In this document: positions 1,138 through 13,128 of the stretch, in pieces
How the letters are laid out: each line of letters starts with the position of its first letter
Numbering within the stretch: the first letter of the stretch is position 1
DNA from: Thermoproteota archaeon
Lineage (GTDB): Archaea; Korarchaeota; Korarchaeia; Korarchaeales; Korarchaeaceae
NCBI GenBank assembly: GCA_027491395.1
Contig: JAOZFI010000028.1
Location: 1 to 13,128 of the forward strand
Length of the DNA stretch: 13,128 bases
Reading direction: 5' to 3'
Notes under the pieces: model-generated
What the model was told of the DNA's origin: nothing
The model's database searches: none
What the model saw: the letters and a program-made list of their open reading frames with translations, nothing else
Program-made: the position numbers and the translations under genes

Positions 1138-1190
1138 GATAAGGTTAGGGGAGCTCCCTCTTCAGCACTGGCGGGGGAGCTCCCCTTATC
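1138..1190. repeat. Imperfect inverted repeat at a convergent gene junction, possible terminator/RNA hairpin
   Basis: GATAAGG (1138-1144) is complementary to CCTTATC (1184-1190). The palindrome GGGAGCTCCC occurs twice (1149-1158, 1175-1184). Confidence 0.4.
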
Positions 1191-4100
1191 AACCTCGCAT
1201 CGAAGCCTCTCCTTTTAAGCTCCTTGAGCAGCTCCTCCCTGCCAGTGTATATTGGTACGCCCTCCCTGTCCGCTAGACCCAGAGCGGCTGAAAGCTCCTC
1301 ATCAGCTCCCCTCACGACTATCTTTCTCTTAGGGGCTTTCTCGACCTTTATAGCCCTGTCAACTATGAGCTTCTCTATGGAAGACATGAGAACTTGGTCC
1401 TTGCTCAGCTTATTGAAGGTCTCCATGGGTATCAATATCTCGTGGTCTTGAACTAGGTCATTGAGCACACCTCTCCTCGTCGCCCACTTCAGAGCCTCGT
1501 AATCCATCACTATCTTCTTGACTCCTTCCCTCCTCTTCACCGCTAGCAGGAGGGGAATCAGTGTCAGGGTGATCAGTATTATCCACCACGGGATCGATGG
1601 GAGAGATGGCAGCTCTATGCTGAATGTAGGTGGTGGAGCGACCCCTCTCTGGGCGGGACTGAACTCCACCTCCACCTTGACGCTTTTCCCGTATTTAGGC
1701 AGAGAGATTAGCACGCTCCCACCGGAGGACTCCTCGTCAGCTGGTGATACCTCGAACGTTATAGAGGCTGTACCACCCTTTGAAATAGAGATCTGCCACT
1801 CCAGCACGTTCCCCCTCACCCTAGGGGGTGAGGATACCCCCTCTATTCTGGAGCTTCCCTGCACGTATCTGAGCGATGGGTCTAGGTTCGCCAGTATCTT
1901 GACGGACCTCGCTCCAGTCGGGCTTGATACAGTTACCCTTATGCGGCTGTTACCTCCAAAGTTGCTGGCGGATGCCCTAAGGTCGACCACCTCAGGCGGG
2001 GGGGCAGGTGGTTTCGGCGGGGCGGGTTTCGACTTGGGCTTCACTGATATCAGCACGCTATCGGATGAGGAGTCGGCCCTAGCTACTACATTGAAGCTGC
2101 CGGACGTAGCCAGCAATTCAGCCCTGAAGCTGACCTCGACAGCCTTACCCGGATCCAAGGTCCCAATCTCCCACTTTAGCCTGTTATTCTCATTATCTGG
2201 CTCCCTTCGGAGACCTCCGACCATGGAGGTGCCTTTCACGTAGTCCAAGCCGCTTGTGAGGTCTACTGTGAGGGAGAGATCCTTGGATGGACCATCTCCT
2301 ATGTTGCTCACCCTAGCTACAAATGTGATAGGCGTCCCTGTCTCAGCTGATGTCGGTGTGGCCATCAGCTCGACCACCACCAAGGGAGGACTGGTTACCC
2401 CAGCCACTCCAGATACCCCGTTTTCGTCCCCGCTGTGCGAAGTGGGGATACTCCCTCTGGATCCTGACCCTGAGCTGTGCTGTCCTCTATATGATGATGA
2501 GATTCCTTGAGATCCCAATGACACTAAGACTATCGGGGGGCTGGTCAGCCTGTAGTTATGCGTCTCCTCCTCACTAGTCTGGGGGGCTTGGTCCTCTACG
2601 TCGTTGTTAGGTGGTATCCAGCCGCACGGTGGTGGAGTTCTCCTACGGGTCGATCCTCCGGTGTTCCAACCACTCTCAGGAGGTGGTGAGGGCGGCGGAT
2701 CCCTCACAAGCACGGAGACAGATGCCATGAAGGAGTCGTTGACGTACACTTTGTTATCCTTGGTGCCGTACGTTGTTGCTACGAGGGAATACATTACCCT
2801 CGCTACTTGGCCTGGATTCAGGGTGATATTGTACTTCAAATGTCTGCCCTCGATCACTGGACCGTCAACGGTCAGGTTGGATGAGAAGGACCCATTTACG
2901 TAATCCATCCCGGATGGAAGCAGGTCCTCCACCATCAGGAGGGCCGGCATGCCACCCGAATTGGTATGGATCACCGTGTAGTTCACGGTCTCGTTCACAT
3001 CCACCAGATCAGGCTGGGCCTCCTTGGTGACCTCTACTATGGCTGGGTTTATCACATTGACCTCATCAGTGTCGTTCCCCTCTTCGTAATCTCCATAGAA
3101 GACCACTAAGTTTTCCAAGGTCGTGCCGGCCGGGGCGTCGATCGAGACGTTGAATCTTATGACGACCTCCGAGTCGGCTGGCACATCTACCAACCAGCTC
3201 AGATTCCTGTCCTCTATTTCCGGCTCCACCATGTTGCCATCGACCCTCGCGGTTCCGTTGATGTATTCCATGCCCTCCGGCAGCACATCAGTTACCGTGA
3301 CGTTGTACGCGGTCCCATTGCCGTAATTCCTGATCAGGAGTAGGACTTCTGCAGTGGAATTGGGCGTCACCGTGGAAGGGTTGACGGACTTGGAGATGGT
3401 CAGATTCGTCGCCACAGCTGGCGCCTCGTATACCGGACCGAACTCTGAAGTCCCGTGAGGGAGCAGTGTAGTTAAAGCGGTCAGATTTATGGGCTTGGAG
3501 GCCAGCTCGGTGGGTAGATCTATCCATCCCAGGAATTCACCGTTCTCCGCCACCAGAGTGCCCAAGTACCTAAAGCCCTCCCCGTATCCGCTGGGATCCC
3601 CGTCAGACTGATAGATCTCCACGGCGGCACCGTCGAACTTGGAATTGGCACTATCAGATCCCTCCACATTTATGTAACCCCTCACTATGAGCTTGCTCCC
3701 GTAAACAGCAGCCCAAGAGAGGACGGGATAGTCAACTAGGTCGTTGGGACCTGTGGACAGCGAACCGTCGTTCAACGTCACGAAGTCGCTACCCAAATCT
3801 ATACCCAAGAGGGTGTTGTTGTAGGACGAGATCCTAGTAACTACATTACCGCGGGATGAGTTACCTTCCACTACTACGCCCGTGTACGAATTGTCGTGTA
3901 TCGATGTACCATTGATCACGTTGCCGGACGATCCGGAGAGGCCGGAAAGCAGCACACCCCATCTACATTCACTTATCTCCCCTCTGATCTCGTTATCGTT
4001 CCCATCTTGGATCCACACTCCGTACATGCTACCCGAGATCTCTGCATCTATCTCGTTACCCTCGCTCGCCTCCACGTAGATACCAGCTATAGTATTATTC

Positions 4101-5032
4101 TCTATCGTGGAATTCGTCAGAGAATTCCCGTTGGAGTGTGATACCACGGCCACTCCATAAACGTTTCCTCCAATGCTCATTCCGGTGAACCTATTGTTCT
4201 CGGACCTCAGGTAGACGTAGATACCGTAACCGTCGCTTCCGGAAGCCGTGTTGTTTACCGCCGCAACGTCGGAGAATGAGTTACCATCAGAATCTTCCAA
4301 GTAGATTCCGTACCATCCGTTCCTACCGGAGAACACGCTTGAAAATGTGTTGTTGGCCGAGTACTCCAGCAGCATCCCTCCCTCAGAGTTCCCGGTGGTG
4401 TTCACCTCTTCCACAGAGGTATCGGATGTGAACAGGAGGAGCAAACCCACCCTATTCCCATCAGCCGAGGAATTGTGGATTGCTGATATCACCGTTCCCT
4501 TCACATTGATCCCCACATTGGTGTTGTTGCCCGCGTCTATCCCGCTGAGGGTGATGTTTGAGCTCGATACGAGGTTGACCCCGAAGTAATTGCCAGTAGC
4601 GACTATGTTCCTGATGAGGCTCTCACTGGATAGCTGGACGTGTATTCCCGCCATCTGGGATCCTATGGCACCTACCACGGTGAAATTCTCCACCGTCACA
4701 TTTCTCACGTTCCACAGCTCTATGGTGTTTTGGGTGGTGTTCAGGGCCTCTATCCTGACCTGAGATGGGTCACCCACTCCCCTGAAAGAGATATCGCTCA
4801 CCGCGATCTTCACATTGTCCCTGTAGGTCCCGGGACAGACGAGTATTGTGTCCCCACGAGAGGCTGAAGAGAGGGCTTCGCTTGGTAGATCGAAGTACAG
4901 ATCACCAGAGACGCATGCCGTCCCGGTATGGACCACCAAGGTTCTTGGAGTGCTCGCCTTCAAACCGTAAGCTGGTAAGAGAAGTAGAAATATTAACAGC
5001 AGCGCGGATTTTACCTTCATGAGGCCTCGCAT
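1145..5032 (-). CDS. Large cell-surface glycoprotein: signal peptide, NosD/pectin-lyase-like right-handed beta-helix, four DUF11-like Ig repeats, Pro/Ser-rich linkers, one TM helix, cytoplasmic PIN-like domain
   Basis: 1295-aa ORF (alternative start ATG 5020). Signal peptide MKVKSALLLIFLLLLPAYG; GDTILVCPGTY and repeated N-x-x-GI-x-L beta-helix turns (~4940-3810); GIDLG..VTLND...GPN and GYGEG..YLG motifs; DUF11-like repeats (K-x-V-x-P...N-x-G...D-x-LP-x-G-x-x-YV-x-GS/T) at about 3406-3050, 3041-2705, 2383-2040 and 1990-1660; TM IPWWIILITLTLIPLLLAV followed by KRR (1538-1594); about 124-aa C-terminal tail. Confidence 0.88.
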   Translation of the reverse strand: MRGLMKVKSALLLIFLLLLPAYGLKASTPRTLVVHTGTACVSGDLYFDLPSEALSSASRGDTILVCPGTYRDNVKIAVSDISFRGVGDPSQVRIEALNTTQNTIELWNVRNVTVENFTVVGAIGSQMAGIHVQLSSESLIRNIVATGNYFGVNLVSSSNITLSGIDAGNNTNVGINVKGTVISAIHNSSADGNRVGLLLLFTSDTSVEEVNTTGNSEGGMLLEYSANNTFSSVFSGRNGWYGIYLEDSDGNSFSDVAAVNNTASGSDGYGIYVYLRSENNRFTGMSIGGNVYGVAVVSHSNGNSLTNSTIENNTIAGIYVEASEGNEIDAEISGSMYGVWIQDGNDNEIRGEISECRWGVLLSGLSGSSGNVINGTSIHDNSYTGVVVEGNSSRGNVVTRISSYNNTLLGIDLGSDFVTLNDGSLSTGPNDLVDYPVLSWAAVYGSKLIVRGYINVEGSDSANSKFDGAAVEIYQSDGDPSGYGEGFRYLGTLVAENGEFLGWIDLPTELASKPINLTALTTLLPHGTSEFGPVYEAPAVATNLTISKSVNPSTVTPNSTAEVLLLIRNYGNGTAYNVTVTDVLPEGMEYINGTARVDGNMVEPEIEDRNLSWLVDVPADSEVVIRFNVSIDAPAGTTLENLVVFYGDYEEGNDTDEVNVINPAIVEVTKEAQPDLVDVNETVNYTVIHTNSGGMPALLMVEDLLPSGMDYVNGSFSSNLTVDGPVIEGRHLKYNITLNPGQVARVMYSLVATTYGTKDNKVYVNDSFMASVSVLVRDPPPSPPPESGWNTGGSTRRRTPPPCGWIPPNNDVEDQAPQTSEEETHNYRLTSPPIVLVSLGSQGISSSYRGQHSSGSGSRGSIPTSHSGDENGVSGVAGVTSPPLVVVELMATPTSAETGTPITFVARVSNIGDGPSKDLSLTVDLTSGLDYVKGTSMVGGLRREPDNENNRLKWEIGTLDPGKAVEVSFRAELLATSGSFNVVARADSSSDSVLISVKPKSKPAPPKPPAPPPEVVDLRASASNFGGNSRIRVTVSSPTGARSVKILANLDPSLRYVQGSSRIEGVSSPPRVRGNVLEWQISISKGGTASITFEVSPADEESSGGSVLISLPKYGKSVKVEVEFSPAQRGVAPPPTFSIELPSLPSIPWWIILITLTLIPLLLAVKRREGVKKIVMDYEALKWATRRGVLNDLVQDHEILIPMETFNKLSKDQVLMSSIEKLIVDRAIKVEKAPKRKIVVRGADEELSAALGLADREGVPIYTGREELLKELKRRGFDARLIRGAPPPVLKRELP

Positions 5033-5118: not shown

Positions 5119-7278
5119 ATGACCACCCTAATACTCACAGAGAAGCCGAGGGTCGCCAAGAGGATATCCTCCATTCTCTCAAATAAACCTCAGCAGAAGA
5201 AGATCGGAAGACTGACCTACTACACCTTCGAGCTCGATGGCGAGGAGTACGTGGTAGTGCCAGCAGCTGGACACCTGCTGGAGCTCGACTATCCCGAGGG
5301 TAAGTGGGTCTATCCGATAATACTGCCCCCGGAGGAGCTTGTCCTGAGAGAGATAGATGGGAAGAGCCAGTTTCTAAGGGTGATAGAGAGGCTGGGGAGG
5401 AAGGCAGGTAGGATAATCATCGCAACGGATTTGGATGCTGAAGGGAGTTCCATAGCCCTCGAGATAATGAGAGCCTTGGGATGGGAGAAGGATAAGGAGA
5501 TTTACAGGATGGAGTTCTCATCCCTTAACGCTCAGGAGATAAAGGAAGCCTTCCGCAATCTCAAACCCTTCGACTATCCCAGAGCCAATGCAGGTTTCGC
5601 TAGGAGGGTTCTGGACCTGCAGTGGGGCGCTAATGTCTCGAGAGGGCTCACCCTGAGCACGAGGAAGAGGAGCTGGATAAAGGTGCTCAGTTCAGGTAGG
5701 GTTCAAGGACCCACTCTTTCTCTAATAGTGAAGAGGGAGCGGGAGATCAGAAACTTCGTTCCTAAGAAGTACTATGTCGTGACAGCACTGATGGAGAGTG
5801 GGAAGGGAAAGTTTGAGGTCAAGCTGGTGCCTCCTAAGGGTGAGGAGAGAGTATGGAGTAGGGAGTACGCGGAGAGGGCGGCCGAGGCCATCAGAGGAAA
5901 GGTGATCAAGGCCAAAGTCAGGTCTAGAAGGGTCTCGCTCGCTCCTCCCCCTCCCTTCGACGGCACTTCTATGCAGATCGAGGTGAGCAGGATAACGGGG
6001 CTGACCCCAAAGCTGATAGCAGACAGATCAACTGGAATCGCCCAGCAGTTGTATGAGGCAGGTCTCATTAGCTACATCGGAACGGAGAGTCAAAAGTACC
6101 CGAAAAACTGGACCAAGGAAGACTTCGTCAGGATGGTTGAGCTCATAGGAAGTTATTCCCCCCTCGAGGAGGACGCTTCCTTCGTGTTAAGGAACATGAG
6201 GGACAGGCCCGTGGAGGGGAAGAAGGACGATCCAGCTCATCCGACCATCCATGTTGTCGGGTCTCCCGAGGAGGAATTCCAGAGCAGGAACCACAGGCGA
6301 GTTTACGAGATAATAGCTAGAAGGAATCTGGCTACCCTTGCACCGGATGCCCTCATAAAGAGAGTGAATGTGGAGATCCCGGTGGAGGAATACAGGTTCA
6401 AGGCCAGCGGCGCCGCCCTATTAGAGGAGGGATGGCTCAGGGTCTACCCTTACGCCAAGAAAGATTATTTGATGCCTCCGGTGGACAATGGAGAGGAAGT
6501 TAAGTGCATCGACGTAAAGATAGAGGAGAAGGAGACCCAGCCTCCTAAGAGGTACACTCCGGTCTCGATAATTAAGGAGATGGAGAAGTTGGGATTGGGA
6601 ACAAAGAATACGAGGGTCCAGATACTGGACATACTCAGGGAGAGGGGGTACATAGAGGGGAAAAGTTTCAAGCCCACGCCGCTGGGGGAGGCGGTCGCGG
6701 AGGTGCTCGAGGAGTACGTTCCGGAACTCACAAGCCCGGAGCTCACTGCTAAGCTTGAAGAAGCCATGACGAAGATTGAGAGAGGGGAGTTGGACCACAG
6801 CTCCTTCCTCAGCGATGCGTTACTGAAACTGGAGCGGATAATGAGGGACTTCAAGAGTAAGGAAGGGCTCATCTCGGAGAAGCTGGCCAAGGCTGTTCAG
6901 GCATACAGGTTGTCCCAGAACATCGTCGGGAAATGCCCGAAGTGCGGAAGGGATCTCCTCCTCAAGAAGAGCAAGTACGGTTACTTCGTCATATGCTCCG
7001 GCTATCCTGACGAATGCGATGTGAAGTTCAACCTCTTACCTAGGGAACGCATATTGAGGGAGGAGTGCAAGTGTGGTCTCCCGCTGGTGGAAGGGGGGAT
7101 CAAAACTAAGAGTAAGAGGACCCTCAAGTACGTCAGGTGCTTGGGTAATTGCGAGGAAAGCCCGGTGAGGTGCGCCAAATGCGGCGGAGTGATGGTTCCG
7201 AAGAAAGGGAAGTTCGGGGTGTACCTGCAGTGCAGGGAGTGCGGATCAGTGAACTTCTTCAGAGTAAGAAAGCGCTGA
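5119..7278 (+). CDS. topA: Type IA DNA topoisomerase (archaeal TopA/Topo III-like) with three C-terminal Zn-ribbon modules; atypical active-site motif
   Basis: TOPRIM TEKP, AGHL, IATDLDAEG; SSGRVQGPTL; LYEAGLISY (Tyr319, codon 6073-6075); DPAHP; GLGTKNTR; Cys clusters CPKC..CSGYPDEC, CKC..CLGNC and CAKC..CREC. Confidence 0.93.
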   Translation: MTTLILTEKPRVAKRISSILSNKPQQKKIGRLTYYTFELDGEEYVVVPAAGHLLELDYPEGKWVYPIILPPEELVLREIDGKSQFLRVIERLGRKAGRIIIATDLDAEGSSIALEIMRALGWEKDKEIYRMEFSSLNAQEIKEAFRNLKPFDYPRANAGFARRVLDLQWGANVSRGLTLSTRKRSWIKVLSSGRVQGPTLSLIVKREREIRNFVPKKYYVVTALMESGKGKFEVKLVPPKGEERVWSREYAERAAEAIRGKVIKAKVRSRRVSLAPPPPFDGTSMQIEVSRITGLTPKLIADRSTGIAQQLYEAGLISYIGTESQKYPKNWTKEDFVRMVELIGSYSPLEEDASFVLRNMRDRPVEGKKDDPAHPTIHVVGSPEEEFQSRNHRRVYEIIARRNLATLAPDALIKRVNVEIPVEEYRFKASGAALLEEGWLRVYPYAKKDYLMPPVDNGEEVKCIDVKIEEKETQPPKRYTPVSIIKEMEKLGLGTKNTRVQILDILRERGYIEGKSFKPTPLGEAVAEVLEEYVPELTSPELTAKLEEAMTKIERGELDHSSFLSDALLKLERIMRDFKSKEGLISEKLAKAVQAYRLSQNIVGKCPKCGRDLLLKKSKYGYFVICSGYPDECDVKFNLLPRERILREECKCGLPLVEGGIKTKSKRTLKYVRCLGNCEESPVRCAKCGGVMVPKKGKFGVYLQCRECGSVNFFRVRKR

Positions 7279-7832
7279 TAACTGATCTGGATGGGACCTT
7301 AGTCGACCTCCACATAGATTGGGATTCTCTCAGGGAGAGGGTAAGAAGGGCGATGGGATGGGATCATCCCCTCAGGCCTTTGGGGAGGAGCATACCTCAA
7401 GCTGCAAGAAGTGAGGAGGAGGTTAAACGGGCATTCAAGATAGTCGAGGAGGAGGAATTAAAAGCAGCATCGAGGGCCCGACCGGACGAAGAACTGAGAA
7501 AATTCTTCGTTTCCTTAAGGAGGAAGGGCTTCCGATTAGGACTTGTAACGATGCAGGCCAGCAGATCGACCATTTTAGTCCTGAGGAATATGGATCTAGC
7601 CGATCTGTTCGACGTGATCGTCACTAGAGAGTACTCCCTGGACAGGAGAGAACAGTTAGTTTACGCTTTGAAAAAATTGGGTGTTAAGGGTGGGGATTGC
7701 GTATTTCTAGGGGACATGGAATGGGATGTAAGGTCCGGGAAGGAGATCGGGTGCCTCACCATATGCGTTGGGGGGAAGATAGAAGGTGCGGATCTCTATG
7801 TGCGAGACATCAGTGAAATATTCAAGTATTGA
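7239..7832 (+). CDS. HAD-superfamily hydrolase (subfamily IA, phosphoglycolate-phosphatase-like)
   Basis: Motif I KALITDLDGTL, motif II LGLVT, motif IV FLGDMEWD. Start uncertain: in-frame GTG 7239 chosen (40-nt overlap with the end of topA); the 7149 start in the ORF track is unlikely. Confidence 0.85.
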   Translation: MRISELLQSKKALITDLDGTLVDLHIDWDSLRERVRRAMGWDHPLRPLGRSIPQAARSEEEVKRAFKIVEEEELKAASRARPDEELRKFFVSLRRKGFRLGLVTMQASRSTILVLRNMDLADLFDVIVTREYSLDRREQLVYALKKLGVKGGDCVFLGDMEWDVRSGKEIGCLTICVGGKIEGADLYVRDISEIFKY

Positions 7833-8287: not shown

Positions 8288-8728
8288 TTAGGCTCCTTCC
8301 ACATTCCTCAAGTATTCTCTTATGTAGGATGATAGAGATCTTACCAGCCTCTTCATTTCCCTCGCCTTTCTTCTTCTCTCTTCCATTTCCCTCTGGATGG
8401 AGGCTAGTTGCCTCTCTAACTTTTGTATGCCATCTGACGAAGACACCGCAACCAGAACCCTCTCCAGAGTTATGCGGTCCAGCCTCTCTAGGAAGTATTC
8501 TATCTGCTGAACCAAGTGTTTACCTACTGAATCGCTGGAGTCCCCCAGTCTCTTCAGCCTGTGCATGAACGAGATCAAATTCTGCCTTTCCTGACTCAGA
8601 GGATCGTAAATTATCTCAACCCTTATCATCCTGCCCATTCTGGAGACCCGTGTGAACTCCTCAAGTCCCAAGTCGCTGATCACCCTAGATATCGTTTCCG
8701 CTGGATCCTCTATCCCCCTTGGCCTCAT
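8288..8728 (-). CDS. Hypothetical protein, helical with C-terminal coiled coil
   Basis: 146-148 aa ORF with genome-typical codon usage. SD GAGGTG lies 7 nt before ATG 8728 (alternative ATG 8734). Heptad-like IQKLERQLASIQREMEERRRKAREMKRLVRSL. T-run follows the stop. Confidence 0.72.
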   Translation of the reverse strand: MRPRGIEDPAETISRVISDLGLEEFTRVSRMGRMIRVEIIYDPLSQERQNLISFMHRLKRLGDSSDSVGKHLVQQIEYFLERLDRITLERVLVAVSSSDGIQKLERQLASIQREMEERRRKAREMKRLVRSLSSYIREYLRNVEGA

Positions 8729-8903
8729 CCTCATCCACCTCTATCTCGGCCACGATGGGGCCTCTGTACCCACAGTCCAGACAGATATATTCCTCTGGCA
8801 GTAGCCAGCCAGAGAAGGGGGAGACCTTCCTAATATTGGTGCTCCCACAAACGGGACACACAGTTATCTTGATCGTCCTCTTTGACCTGCCCACTTCCAC
8901 CAC
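8685..8903 (-). CDS. Small archaeal C4 zinc-ribbon protein
   Basis: CPVCGSTNI...SGWLLPEEYICLDCGYRGP with an acidic tail. Start uncertain (ATG 8936 or GTG 8903/8900/8894; GGAGG at 8916-8920). Confidence 0.8.
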   Translation of the reverse strand: MVEVGRSKRTIKITVCPVCGSTNIRKVSPFSGWLLPEEYICLDCGYRGPIVAEIEVDEDEAKGDRGSSGNDI

Positions 8904-9284: not shown

Positions 9285-12173
9285 GTGGAGAAGGTGGTGA
9301 TATTGGAGGCGGAGGCCAACCTCGTCAGCAAGCTTAGGCAGATAGAGAGGAAGTGGCAGGCCAAGTGGGAGGAAGCTAGAATATTCGAGGCGGATCCGGA
9401 CAACAGAGAGAAATTCTACCTCACCGTGGCCTATCCCTATCCCAACAGCCCGCAGCACGTGGGTCACGGGAGGACCTACGGACTCACAGATGCATATGCC
9501 CGTTTCAAGAGGATGCAGGGCTACAACGTGCTCTTCCCCATGGGCTTTCATTACACCGGAACTCCGATCCTCGCTATGGCAAAGAGGCTCAAGGAGGGAG
9601 ACAAGGAGCTCATACGCATATTCACGGAGGTATTCCACATACCCAAGGAGAAGCTGAAGGAGCTGGAGGACCCGCTCAAGATGGCTCGTTACTTCCATGA
9701 GGAGATCAAGTCGGGAATGAAGCTAATGGGGTACTCCATAGACTGGAGGAGGGAGTTCACCACCATAGACCCGCCCTACAACAACTTCATAACGTGGCAG
9801 TTCCACAAGCTCCACGAGAAAGGCCTCCTCACCAAGGGTAGACATCCTGTCGGTTGGTGTCCGAGGTGCAATAATGCGGTAGGTCAGCACGATACAATAG
9901 GTGATGTGGAACCGGAGATCGCTGAAACCACCCTGATAAAGTTCGAGGATGAATTCATCATCCCAGTCGTTACCTTCAGACCGGAGACCATCCTCGGCGT
10001 CACCAATATCTGGATAAATCCGGAGGTGAAGTACAAGATCATCGAGGTGGACGGGGAGAAGTGGGTGGTCTCTGAGGAGGCTCTGATAAAGCTCAAGTTC
10101 CAGAAGTTCCCCGTGAAGGAGGAGGTTGGCGAGATCTGGGGCAGAGATCTAATAGGGAAGAGAGTGAGGAACCCCATGACTGGGGAGGAGGTCGTGATAC
10201 TTCCAGCTGAGTTCGTTGATCCGGATTACGGGACCGGTATTGTGATGTCCGTCCCCGGTCATGCTCCTTACGATTATCTCGCTCTCACAGACCTCAAAAG
10301 GAACCCGGATGTTCTCAGGAAGTACGAACTCTCTCCAGAGATGCTCGATGGTCTCGAGCCAGTATCCATAATTGAGGTGGAGGGATTCGGTGAGTTCCCG
10401 GCCAAAGATGCCGTGGAGTCCCTCGGGGTTAGGGACCAGAACGATAAGAGGGCTGAGGAGGCCACCGAGCTCGTCTACTCCAAGGAGTATCACTCCGGAA
10501 GGATGAAACCTAACACCGGGAAGTACGCTGGCTTACCGGTAAGTGAGGCGAAGGAAAGGGTCAAGGAGGATCTGATAGCCGCGGGGAAGGCTTACGTGTT
10601 CTACGAAATAGCCAACGCCCCCGTGTACTGCAGGTGCGGGGCCAAGATAGTCGTGAACATAGTTGAGGACCAGTGGTTCATCGATTACTCCAACCCCGAG
10701 TGGAAGAGGTTGGCCCATGAGGCCCTCAACAGCATGAGGATAGTTCCTAAGGAGGTCAGGAGGGAGTTCGAGGAGGCAATAGATTGGATGAGAGAGAAGG
10801 CCTGTGCTAGAAAGAGCGGTCTCGGAACCAAGCTTCCTTTCGATCCCGATTGGATAATAGAGAGTCTCAGTGATTCCACGATTTACATGGCCTACTACAC
10901 TATAAGTAAGTTCATAAATGAGGGACTAGTTACCGCCGATCACCTTGACGATGAGACCTTCGATTACATATTCCTCGGGAAGGGAGATCCGGAGGACATC
11001 GCCCGCAGGAAGGGGCTCGATGTGGAGGTACTCAAGAGGCTCAGGGAGGAGTTCACATACTGGTATCCGCTTGACTCTAGGCACAGTGGTAGGGACCTCA
11101 TATGGAACCATCTCACCTTCTTCATCTTCAACCATGTAGCTATATTCCCTAGAGAGTTCTGGCCTAGGCAGATAGTCGTGAACGGCTCGGTCACCATGGA
11201 AGGAAAGAAGATGTCCAAATCCTTGGGCAATATAATCCCGATAAGGGAAGCAGTGGAAATATTCGGTGCTGACCCCATTAGGCTATCTGTTCTCGGTTCT
11301 GCCGAGCTCCTGTCGGATGCAGACTTCTCCCCTCAGGTAGCAGCCAGTACCCTCAGGAGGTTGTTTAGAATACACGAGATAGCCACGCAGTTCTCGGGAG
11401 CCGAGGAGAAGAAGGAACCAGAGGACTTCTGGGACAAGTGGATACTCAGCAGGACGAGAACCCACATAATAGCCACGACCGAGTCAATGGAGGAGTGCAG
11501 GAGCAGGGAGGCGATACAGCATGCCCTCTACCTGATCCTCAACGAGATGGAGGATTACTTGGAGGCTAAGGAGAGGCTTAACGAGGGCATCATCAAGGCG
11601 GTCCTCAAGATATGGGCCAGACTGCTCGCCCCCTTCGCGCCCCACATGGCCGAGGAGATCTGGGAGATACTTGGCGGGGAAGGTTTAGTGTCCCTCGCTA
11701 GGTGGCCCGATCCCGAGGAGGTGCCCCAGTACCCAGAAGCGGAGCTCTCATATGAAGTCGTGTCCAACGTTCTCGAGGATGTGAGGAGCATCCTATCTTC
11801 AGGGGTGAAGGGAAGCAAGCTTTACCTCTATCTAGCGTCAGACTGGAAGTACGACCTCTTCAGGAGGATCGACGAGTTGAAGAGAGTGCATGGGCTCGAT
11901 CCGCGCAAGATAATACCTGAAGTGATGAAGGAGGAGATGTTCAAGATCAGGAGCAAACAAGCGATTGACCTGATCAGGCAGTTCACCTCAGGCGGATGGC
12001 CGTGGCTGCCCAGCAAGGAAGCCGAGCTTGGGGCCCTCAAGGATGCTAAGTCCTTCTTGGAGAAGAAGCTGGGCTTGGAGATAGTGCTCGAGGACGAGGA
12101 TTCACCGTCCTACGATCCTAAAAAGAGGGCCGGGAGGGCCGCCCCCGGGAAACCAGCCATCTACATAGAGTGA
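9285..12173 (+). CDS. leuS: Leucine--tRNA ligase, archaeal/eukaryal type
   Basis: HIGH motif PYPNSPQHVGH, KMSKS, FPMGFHYTGTP, IDWRREFTT, CP1 editing motifs TFRPET and GTGIVMSVPGHAPYD, IESLSDSTIYMAYY, C-terminal APGKPAIYIE. The true start may be TTG 9303 behind AAGGTGGTGA. Confidence 0.97.
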   Translation: MEKVVILEAEANLVSKLRQIERKWQAKWEEARIFEADPDNREKFYLTVAYPYPNSPQHVGHGRTYGLTDAYARFKRMQGYNVLFPMGFHYTGTPILAMAKRLKEGDKELIRIFTEVFHIPKEKLKELEDPLKMARYFHEEIKSGMKLMGYSIDWRREFTTIDPPYNNFITWQFHKLHEKGLLTKGRHPVGWCPRCNNAVGQHDTIGDVEPEIAETTLIKFEDEFIIPVVTFRPETILGVTNIWINPEVKYKIIEVDGEKWVVSEEALIKLKFQKFPVKEEVGEIWGRDLIGKRVRNPMTGEEVVILPAEFVDPDYGTGIVMSVPGHAPYDYLALTDLKRNPDVLRKYELSPEMLDGLEPVSIIEVEGFGEFPAKDAVESLGVRDQNDKRAEEATELVYSKEYHSGRMKPNTGKYAGLPVSEAKERVKEDLIAAGKAYVFYEIANAPVYCRCGAKIVVNIVEDQWFIDYSNPEWKRLAHEALNSMRIVPKEVRREFEEAIDWMREKACARKSGLGTKLPFDPDWIIESLSDSTIYMAYYTISKFINEGLVTADHLDDETFDYIFLGKGDPEDIARRKGLDVEVLKRLREEFTYWYPLDSRHSGRDLIWNHLTFFIFNHVAIFPREFWPRQIVVNGSVTMEGKKMSKSLGNIIPIREAVEIFGADPIRLSVLGSAELLSDADFSPQVAASTLRRLFRIHEIATQFSGAEEKKEPEDFWDKWILSRTRTHIIATTESMEECRSREAIQHALYLILNEMEDYLEAKERLNEGIIKAVLKIWARLLAPFAPHMAEEIWEILGGEGLVSLARWPDPEEVPQYPEAELSYEVVSNVLEDVRSILSSGVKGSKLYLYLASDWKYDLFRRIDELKRVHGLDPRKIIPEVMKEEMFKIRSKQAIDLIRQFTSGGWPWLPSKEAELGALKDAKSFLEKKLGLEIVLEDEDSPSYDPKKRAGRAAPGKPAIYIE

Positions 12174-12193
12174 GGGGGAATTTTCCCATCTCA
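12171..12193. terminator. Imperfect palindrome between the convergent leuS and gap stop codons
   Basis: TGAGGGGGAA-TT-TTCCCATCTCA spans both stop codons; core GGGAA/TTCCC at 12176-12187. Confidence 0.35.
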
Positions 12194-13128
12194 CATTTTA
12201 TTCGCTATATAGTCGAGGAGATCGACTACTCTAGCCGAATAGCCCCACTCATTGTCGTACCATCCGAACACCTTGACGAAGTTGCCATCCACAACCTGGG
12301 TCAGCTCAGGATCGAAGATGACGCTGTGCTCGTCGCCCACCAAGTCGACCGATACTACAGGATCGTGGGCTATTCCTATGTACCTTGACAGAGGGCCGCT
12401 GGCAGCCTCCTCAAAGGCCCTGTTCACCTCATGGATGTTCGTCTCCCTCTCGACCTCTGCGGAGAAATCGACTATAGACACGTCCGGAGTAGGTACCCTT
12501 AGGGCTATTGCGGCCAGCCTCCCCCTCAGCTCAGGGAATATCAGCTCTATGGCCTTCGCCGCGCCGGTGGATGTGGGTATTATAGACATGGCAGCAGCCC
12601 TAGCCCTCCTAAGGTCCCTGTGGGGCGCGTCCAATATCCTCTGATCGTTGGTGTAAGCGTGAACCGTGGTCATCAAACCTCTTCTTATTCCGAAGCTCTC
12701 ATGCAGCACCTTGACCAACAGGGCGAAGGCGTTGGTAGTGCAGGAGGCGTTGCTTATCACGTGGTGCTTGTCCAGATCCAGACCGTCCTCGTTGACGCCC
12801 ATAACAACGGTATAATCTGCGGGTTCGCCCTTAGCCGGCGCTGTAATCACTACCTTCTTGACACTGCCCCTCAGATGCTTCGCGGCATCGCTCCTAGACC
12901 TGAAGAGTCCTGTAGCCTCCACCACCACATCAACACCCAGCTCTTCCCAGGGGATCTTCGCCGGATCTCTGACACCGAACACCCTGATCTCCTTACCATC
13001 CACGAGTATGCTGGATCCCTCGGCCACGATGTTCCCGGGATACCTGCCGAAGACGGAGTCGTACTTCAGCAGGTGGGCTAGCGTCTTGGGATCCGCTATA
13101 TCGTTCACCGCTACGAATTCCAAGTTAG
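12191..13128 (-). CDS. gap: Class I (bacterial/eukaryal-type) glyceraldehyde-3-phosphate dehydrogenase, 5'-truncated by the window edge
   Basis: VAVND, LAHLLKYDSVFG, VVEATGLF, catalytic SNASCTTN, TTVHAYTNDQRILDAPHRDLRRARAAA, PTSTGAAKA, RVPTPDVS, WYDNEWGYS. The frame is open to the window edge and the N-terminal GFGRIGR is not in the window. Confidence 0.96.
   Translation of the reverse strand, partial: NLEFVAVNDIADPKTLAHLLKYDSVFGRYPGNIVAEGSSILVDGKEIRVFGVRDPAKIPWEELGVDVVVEATGLFRSRSDAAKHLRGSVKKVVITAPAKGEPADYTVVMGVNEDGLDLDKHHVISNASCTTNAFALLVKVLHESFGIRRGLMTTVHAYTNDQRILDAPHRDLRRARAAAMSIIPTSTGAAKAIELIFPELRGRLAAIALRVPTPDVSIVDFSAEVERETNIHEVNRAFEEAASGPLSRYIGIAHDPVVSVDLVGDEHSVIFDPELTQVVDGNFVKVFGWYDNEWGYSARVVDLLDYIANKM

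Follow-up and report, generated by a model that had tools for sequence, protein, structure and literature searches.

A predicted PIN-like domain behind the membrane anchor of giant surface proteins in Korarchaeota

The window analysed here is a stretch of 13,128 nucleotides on contig JAOZFI010000028.1 (assembly GCA_027491395.1) from a member of the Korarchaeaceae. Its longest frame, a minus-strand open reading frame at 1145-5032, encodes 1295 amino acids (aa) plus a stop codon, with no internal stop. The product is a large surface protein that is predicted to cross the membrane once and to end inside the cell in a tail with a minimal PIN fold. Across the phylum, many different giant surface proteins end in a related transmembrane helix with a PIN-like tail.

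The surface protein and its topology

The layout of the gene is as follows.

1145..5032, minus strand: whole gene, single-pass surface protein (open reading frame list and translation; layout shared by 12 database proteins of 1211-1306 aa)
4946..5032, minus strand: N-terminal signal peptide, about aa 1-29 (first hydrophobic segment, preceded by basic residues in MRGLMKVK)
3713..4885, minus strand: right-handed beta-helix (NosD-like) ectodomain, about aa 50-440 (Pfam and NCBIfam)
1613..3412, minus strand: DUF11/CARDB/DUF7927 Ig-like repeats with Pro/Ser-rich linkers, aa 541-1140 (Pfam and NCBIfam)
1538..1612, minus strand: single transmembrane helix, aa 1141-1165 (Kyte-Doolittle maximum 2.36 over IPWWIILITLTLIPLLLAV, then KRREGVKK)
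1178..1537, minus strand: predicted cytoplasmic minimal PIN-like domain, aa 1166-1285, tail residues 1-120 (AlphaFold2, Foldseek, VIA-align, profile comparisons and residue counts)
1148..1177, minus strand: Pro-rich C-terminal peptide, APPPVLKRELP (predicted local distance difference test score, pLDDT, below 50 for tail residues 121-130)

The beta-helix was matched by Pfam Beta_helix (1.2e-22) and NosD (1.6e-18) and by the NCBIfam parallel beta-helix repeat, and the Ig-like region by Pfam DUF11 (1.4e-23, three stretches), DUF7927 and CARDB and by NCBIfam TIGR01451; the matches extend over about aa 50-400 and aa 541-1130, respectively. The signal peptide is the least conserved region of the protein (column identity 0.363). 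The whole cytoplasmic tail comprises aa 1166-1295 (130 aa, window 1148-1537) and is numbered here from K1166 = 1. The original prediction, which had been made from the letters of the window, singled out 1148-1594, that is, the tail plus most of the transmembrane helix (1538-1612). The peptides that it quoted (KIVMDYEAL, GVLNDL, EILIPMETFNKL and GADEELSAALGLADREGVPIYTGREELLKELKRRG) all occur in the 1295-aa translation, and its tail length of about 124 aa agrees with the 123 aa that run from KIVMDY to the end.

A Kyte-Doolittle scan of the whole protein found only two hydrophobic segments, at aa 1-29 and aa 1141-1167, the second followed directly by the basic stop-transfer cluster KRREGVKK. All 29 N-X-S/T sequons lie within aa 98-765 and none lies in the tail. 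The combination of a signal peptide, a single transmembrane helix, a basic cluster after it and sequons only before it places the tail inside the cell, so that, as far as these signals in the sequence go, the protein is secreted and anchored by one helix, with a cytoplasmic tail as had been proposed.

A word-indexed search recovered 12 database proteins of 1211-1306 aa that share the tail at 61-100% identity, for one of which the source gives the name NosD domain-containing protein and the organism Candidatus Korarchaeota archaeon; a search for stand-alone tail homologues of 71-228 aa considered 61 candidates, and none of them scored. Searching 1.84 billion proteins with a narrow 12-tail profile returned only 3 representatives, one of them a 78-aa fragment. 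Over 43 genomes of the phylum, a profile of the tail gave 19 strong matches in 18 genomes, all of one genus. Among the other genomes of that genus 17 of 20 carry the tail, and the three without it are 63-86% complete. In every one of the 19 orthologues the tail stands in frame with an ectodomain (frames of 1258-1320 aa, except for two truncated at contig ends). In all copies found, tail and ectodomain are joined and the tail is not a separate gene, in line with the single protein that was first proposed.

The fused tail is under purifying selection. Of the 21 pairs for which dS is defined, 20 give a ratio of non-synonymous to synonymous substitution rates (dN/dS) of 0.04-0.13 for the tail; the remaining pair, whose members are very close, gives 0.42. 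Mean column identity is 0.667 for the tail, 0.61-0.70 for the folded ectodomain and 0.47-0.57 for the linkers. The Pro-rich end is predicted to be disordered; P122 is invariant in all 19 orthologues and the terminal LP nearly so, and this conserved peptide may be a short docking motif.

These data bear on the idea that faulty assembly or gene calling created the fusion, or that the tail lies outside the cell, which we consider extremely improbable. The source genome is a 62-contig assembly (98.4% complete, 1.93% contamination), and a second copy of the 3' part of the gene stands on contig C62 (38341-41439; L002), with a tail 92% identical. This copy has the same CoA-transferase neighbour, is broken off at the contig end and is probably a co-assembled strain variant, not a paralogue. 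Such features would suit an artefact, but the unbroken frame recurs in 18 genomes and is shared by 12 database proteins of several sources; an outside tail would run against the signal peptide, the single transmembrane helix, the basic residues after it and the confinement of sequons to the part before it.

Fold, descent and catalytic positions of the tail

An AlphaFold2 model of the tail, built from 12 tails, reached a pLDDT of 80 and a predicted template modelling score of 0.72. It contains five strands and six helices in PIN order (beta-alpha-alpha-beta-alpha-alpha-beta-alpha-beta-alpha-beta), and the core of the PIN superfamily, a Rossmann-like alpha/beta/alpha fold with strands S1-S5 and helices H1-H5, is present in it. 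All eight Foldseek matches with E ≤ 0.001 were PIN-domain entries, and after re-ranking with VIA-align all 50 entries listed contained PIN-like domains (Z 13.9-9.4). A Foldseek-independent scan of 48,161 representative chains placed PIN-like domains at ranks 1-39 (Z 13.9-7.5), with clearly different folds beginning at rank 42 (Z 5.5). The best structural match was 2mdt (SSO1118; Z 13.9, root-mean-square deviation 3.5, 117 residues). By these models the tail has a minimal PIN fold, as the original prediction had held. Matches in the ESM Atlas, with scores of at most 0.85, were taken as leads only and included several PIN families. A homodimer prediction for the tail scored 0.00 and was not used as evidence either way. 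Conserved, selected and confidently folded, the domain is more than a product of chance.

Searches of the tail against Pfam, NCBIfam and PDB sequences gave nothing usable, the only PDB row being a designed Rossmann protein (E 0.63), and no Pfam PIN family matched the tail at E ≤ 1 or the 19 orthologous tails at E ≤ 10. The family thresholds of PF01850 and PF11848 were not reached, and the relation is visible only in profile-profile comparison. With hhalign, an alignment of 25 tails, drawn from the wider set described below, matched 16 PF01850 PINs of the same genome at 86.7% (E 4.3e-6) and four stand-alone PINs of the phylum at 96.0% (E 4.8e-9, 115 columns), at least two of these four being confirmed by Pfam as DUF3368. 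On these profile comparisons the tail, within its wider family, is homologous to the stand-alone COG2405/DUF3368 PINs, which are its nearest relatives by descent. The 2017 classification of PIN domains assigns 2mdt to this cluster and calls it a minimal PIN core; the cluster is credited with 2-5 active-site residues, 2mdt is among its predicted inactive members, and COG2405 proteins are described as toxins paired with UPF0175 antitoxins (PMC5499597).

According to the same source, PIN activity needs at least four acidic residues, the fourth usually after S2 (PMC5499597). The tail residues concerned correspond to protein residues as follows: D12 to D1177, E39 to E1204, T40 to T1205, K43 to K1208, D47 to D1212, D79-E81 to D1244-E1246, R100 to R1265 and E101 to E1266. 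The first PIN Asp, after S1, is present as D12 in all 19 orthologues and all 25 tails, and in profile alignment it pairs with the first Asp of PINs encoded in the same genome. The helix-4 acidic site is also present: position 79 is Asp in 16 and Glu in 3 orthologues, positions 80 and 81 are mostly acidic, and D79-E80 align to D98-E99, with which the DUF3368 motif DEGEAEAI opens. The PF01850 alignment puts this site three residues later, at L82, so the exact acidic residue of helix 4 is uncertain. The Glu after S2 is missing, since P37/T40/K43 align to P53/V56/E59 and K43 is found in all 19 orthologues; across the tail families this position is Lys or Arg in 20 of 25 and Glu in only one. The Asp after S4 (T-x-D) is missing as well, being R100 here and Arg (7), Glu (4), Asn (4), Asp (3) or Lys (1) among the 19 orthologues. 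Residue counts and the strongest profile alignments together indicate that the tail retains two of the canonical four acidic positions and has basic residues (Lys and Arg) at the other two. This is the degenerate PIN that had been read from the letters, in which the first Asp (D12) and the central acidic cluster (D79-E80-E81) were taken as kept and the helix Glu and the T-x-D Asp as replaced; the best alignments put these last two at K43 and R100.

A possible alternative is that the tail is an active or switchable ribonuclease, in which case the protein would be a one-component transmembrane sensor with a logic like that of Ire1, and clustering or damage of the ectodomain (by a virus or by cell contact) would switch on RNA cleavage inside the cell. 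We regard this as unlikely. The intact PIN fold, the retention of D12 and D79-E81, the conservation of E39 and E101 beside the lost sites, the Asp at position 100 in three orthologues (L014, L020 and L021) and the basic character of the tail, which suits RNA binding, would all fit a nuclease, but all 19 orthologues have Lys in place of Glu at position 43, and position 100 varies freely among Arg, Glu, Asn, Asp and Lys, unlike a catalytic residue.

Related tails across the phylum

Two weak matches of the first tail profile fell in other very large frames, where a hydrophobic helix and a cluster of Arg and Lys precede a tail that starts hhhhDY..LK (h, hydrophobic). Single-sequence searches with these two tails reach each other's families and small stand-alone proteins, two of which are DUF3368 by Pfam, and they reach the family of the window at E 1.2e-7 to 4e-4. 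A profile of 25 tails then gave 47 places at E ≤ 0.001 in 31 of the 43 genomes and 6 of the 10 genera. Four of these places lie in proteins of 157-184 aa; the other 43 form the C-terminus of large frames, the longest of 3328 aa, and in 43 of 43 a transmembrane helix and an Arg/Lys cluster stand upstream of the tail. The few short tail-bearing frames that were checked end at contig ends. Matches at L079, L080, L096 and L097 (E 0.003-0.01; frames of 185-523 aa) were set aside as they do not have the pattern of transmembrane helix plus tail. A broad profile searched against 8000 candidates of 287-2000 aa recovered the known family and one protein of 1226 aa.

The ectodomains of the tail carriers differ. 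One protein of 2968 aa has 13 DUF11 stretches, and another frame, at least 1499 aa long, encodes a beta-helix. In the genome of the window itself, a DUF11/SdrD_B protein of 3245 aa (contig C61, 10122-19858; L098:1122-10859, minus strand) also has a transmembrane helix and a tail, here of 99 aa and truncated, stopping after the start of helix 4. For a second tail family a separate model reached a pLDDT of 90.5, and all 50 entries listed for it were PIN (Z 9.1-6.8). A related transmembrane helix with a PIN-like tail is thus a shared ending of giant surface proteins of many kinds in the phylum, and the proposed search for the same type of tail on different ectodomains was borne out by 43 large frames in 31 of 43 genomes.

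Across families the tails measure 99-163 aa, and the domain varies or is cut short in its second half, as in the 99-aa tail, which is a further point against a nuclease. Taken with the basic residue at the Glu position in 20 of 25 tails, this makes the loss of catalysis look ancestral to the membrane-bound form, as far as the alignments go. In the 25-tail alignment D12 and T40 are invariant and L16 and D47 nearly so.

The variation within the family has also to be weighed for another reading, namely that the tail is a folded plug without a partner, which would orient the transmembrane helix, stabilise the anchor or aid membrane insertion. The segment just behind the membrane (the Arg/Lys cluster and hhhhDY..LK) is the most conserved part across tail families, C-terminal halves differ widely and lengths range as given above, all of which would be expected of a plug. 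Within each orthologue group, however, the whole tail is under strong purifying selection, including R22, K43, D47 and the Pro-rich end, and the conservation of surface-type residues and of a disordered end is more than a mere plug should need. We hold the plug to be rather improbable.

In three genomes of the genus we observed proteins of about 175 aa (L100:456-980, minus strand; L095:1498-2025, minus strand; L094:1405-1938, plus strand) in which an N-terminal hydrophobic segment is followed by a COG2405-like PIN, like the module of transmembrane helix and PIN without an ectodomain. A search of the genome of the window found no protein of this type. Membrane-protein genes that start at or overlap the stop of the giant gene were seen at L022:1988-2452 (plus strand) and L058:3017-3874 (minus strand), and these are possible operon partners of tail-bearing genes. 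The gene in the window has no adjoining membrane-protein gene of this kind.

Gene context and possible roles of the tail

The surface-protein gene is monocistronic, its neighbours being a convergent CoA-transferase gene, kept in 16 of 17 relatives, and a divergent topoisomerase gene. The toxin-antitoxin arrangement of COG2405-UPF0175 or VapBC systems, in which a small toxin gene adjoins an antitoxin gene on the same strand, is not found at the locus, and no antitoxin-like gene stands beside the surface-protein gene. A search of this genome (98.4% complete) for UPF0175 (PF03683) gave no match, and for this reason the idea of the tail as a membrane holder for a UPF0175-type antitoxin was dropped. 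Placement among housekeeping genes and not among defence or antitoxin genes also counts against the nuclease.

The remaining genes of the window are ordinary, and tRNA and Rfam scans of the window gave no match.

5119-7278, plus strand: type IA topoisomerase with zinc ribbons
7149-7832, plus strand: HAD hydrolase (the listed frame overlaps the end of the topoisomerase)
8288-8734, minus strand: coiled-coil protein of 148 aa with no family match
9285-12173: leucyl-tRNA synthetase, further along the window
12191-13123, minus strand: GAPDH

Free PINs of the VapC type are abundant in this genome, with 38 Pfam PIN (PF01850) places at E ≤ 0.01. These 38 places do not take in the tail. DUF3368 is rare in the genus, being found in 3 of 21 genomes and not in this one.

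With somewhat better than even confidence, we favour the reading that the tail is a non-catalytic cytoplasmic docking module exapted from a toxin-type PIN. A PIN of this type would have been domesticated and would have lost its canonical metal-dependent nuclease activity, and the tail would now serve as a folded cytoplasmic foot that ties giant surface proteins to a partner inside the cell. That partner may be anionic (RNA, DNA or an acidic protein), with basic side chains sitting in the former metal site. The orthologue group of the window is uniformly basic (isoelectric point of the tail 9.1-10.5 in 19 of 19; 4.9-10.2 in the other tail families), which is a hint of such a partner. The set of related tails across the phylum argues for a generic role in docking or anchoring rather than for a specific receptor.

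Several points weigh against this docking reading. The cytoplasmic partner is hypothetical. E39 (16 of 19 orthologues) lies one helical turn before K43, E101 (18 of 19) adjoins R100, and the sole orthologue without E101 has D100, so that acidic residues beside both lost sites could form an atypical working acidic cluster. Two weaker early hhalign runs (38% and 51%), made with narrow alignments, put E39 at the Glu site; this register was set aside in favour of the stronger alignments (86.7% and 96.0%). Between helix 4 and strand 4 the alignments differ in register by one residue, and the assignment of sites in the tail rests on profile alignment and not on three-dimensional arrangement. Lastly, the unexplained conservation of D12, T40 and D47 across tail families might mark a site for a small ligand or a metal.

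The docking module can be compared with known PIN systems. COG2405/DUF3368 (PF11848) proteins share the short PIN core and give the best structural and profile match, but they are soluble and of about 150-180 aa, whereas here the domain forms the C-terminus of a membrane protein of 1295 aa. VapC (PF01850) of VapBC has the same fold (Z 10-12 to many VapC structures), with the first Asp and the helix-4 acidic site in common; the tail differs in being tethered to the membrane, in having no adjacent antitoxin gene and in the replacement of Glu by Lys and of the S4 Asp by Arg. The tail is best likened to SMG5 and Utp23, non-catalytic PINs with incomplete acidic sets that act by binding and that are among the structural matches (2hwy, Z 9.9; 4mj7, Z 8.5), although both are eukaryotic and soluble, function in RNA decay or ribosome biogenesis and have no membrane link. 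Utp23 is described as an inactive nuclease with an RNA-binding function (PMC5499597).

PIN.COG4956, the YacL-type PIN-TRAM family, likewise has a PIN attached to the membrane. The original prediction had named it as the closest concept while calling it multipass, which is correct: these proteins have four N-terminal transmembrane helices and a TRAM domain (PMC5499597), with no large ectodomain. By contrast, the surface protein starts with a signal peptide and carries about 1100 aa of ectodomain ahead of a single transmembrane helix, and its C-terminal PIN lacks TRAM; no TRAM was matched by Pfam and four N-terminal transmembrane helices are absent. In the main text of the 2017 classification PIN.COG4956 is the only transmembrane-linked PIN cluster that we found named (PMC5499597); the transmembrane predictions per sequence in the supplement of that paper could hold similar cases. 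A full-text search of the literature returned no account of a PIN behind a large ectodomain and a single transmembrane helix. New here is the presence of homologous transmembrane helices with PIN-like tails on 43 large frames with differing ectodomains.

The original prediction went further and saw in the protein a one-component link from contact outside the cell to signalling, RNA binding or toxicity inside; none of our results lends support to this part. In a broader form of the idea, the exapted toxin-type PIN would be a common transmembrane coupling of Korarchaeota through which surface proteins report contact, stretch or viral attack, and we think this decidedly doubtful. The further proposal within it, that the PIN-like module would bind RNA at the membrane and in some lineages still cut it, is doubtful to the same degree. 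If true, such a coupling would be an archaeal one-component counterpart of Ire1-type signalling. Ire1 is a single-pass sensor with a large sensing domain outside, one transmembrane helix and a nuclease-type domain inside, and its RNase activity resides in a KEN domain behind a kinase rather than in a PIN. The likeness is one of logic only, and activation or catalysis in the korarchaeal protein would be hypothetical.

PIN domains are among the most common nuclease folds. Found at the end of 43 large frames in 31 of 43 genomes, the one described here looks like a toxin domain that has been domesticated as a lineage-wide anchor or wiring of giant envelope proteins. As a soluble domain of 130 aa, the tail offers a handle for finding what the interior of the korarchaeal cell holds on to.

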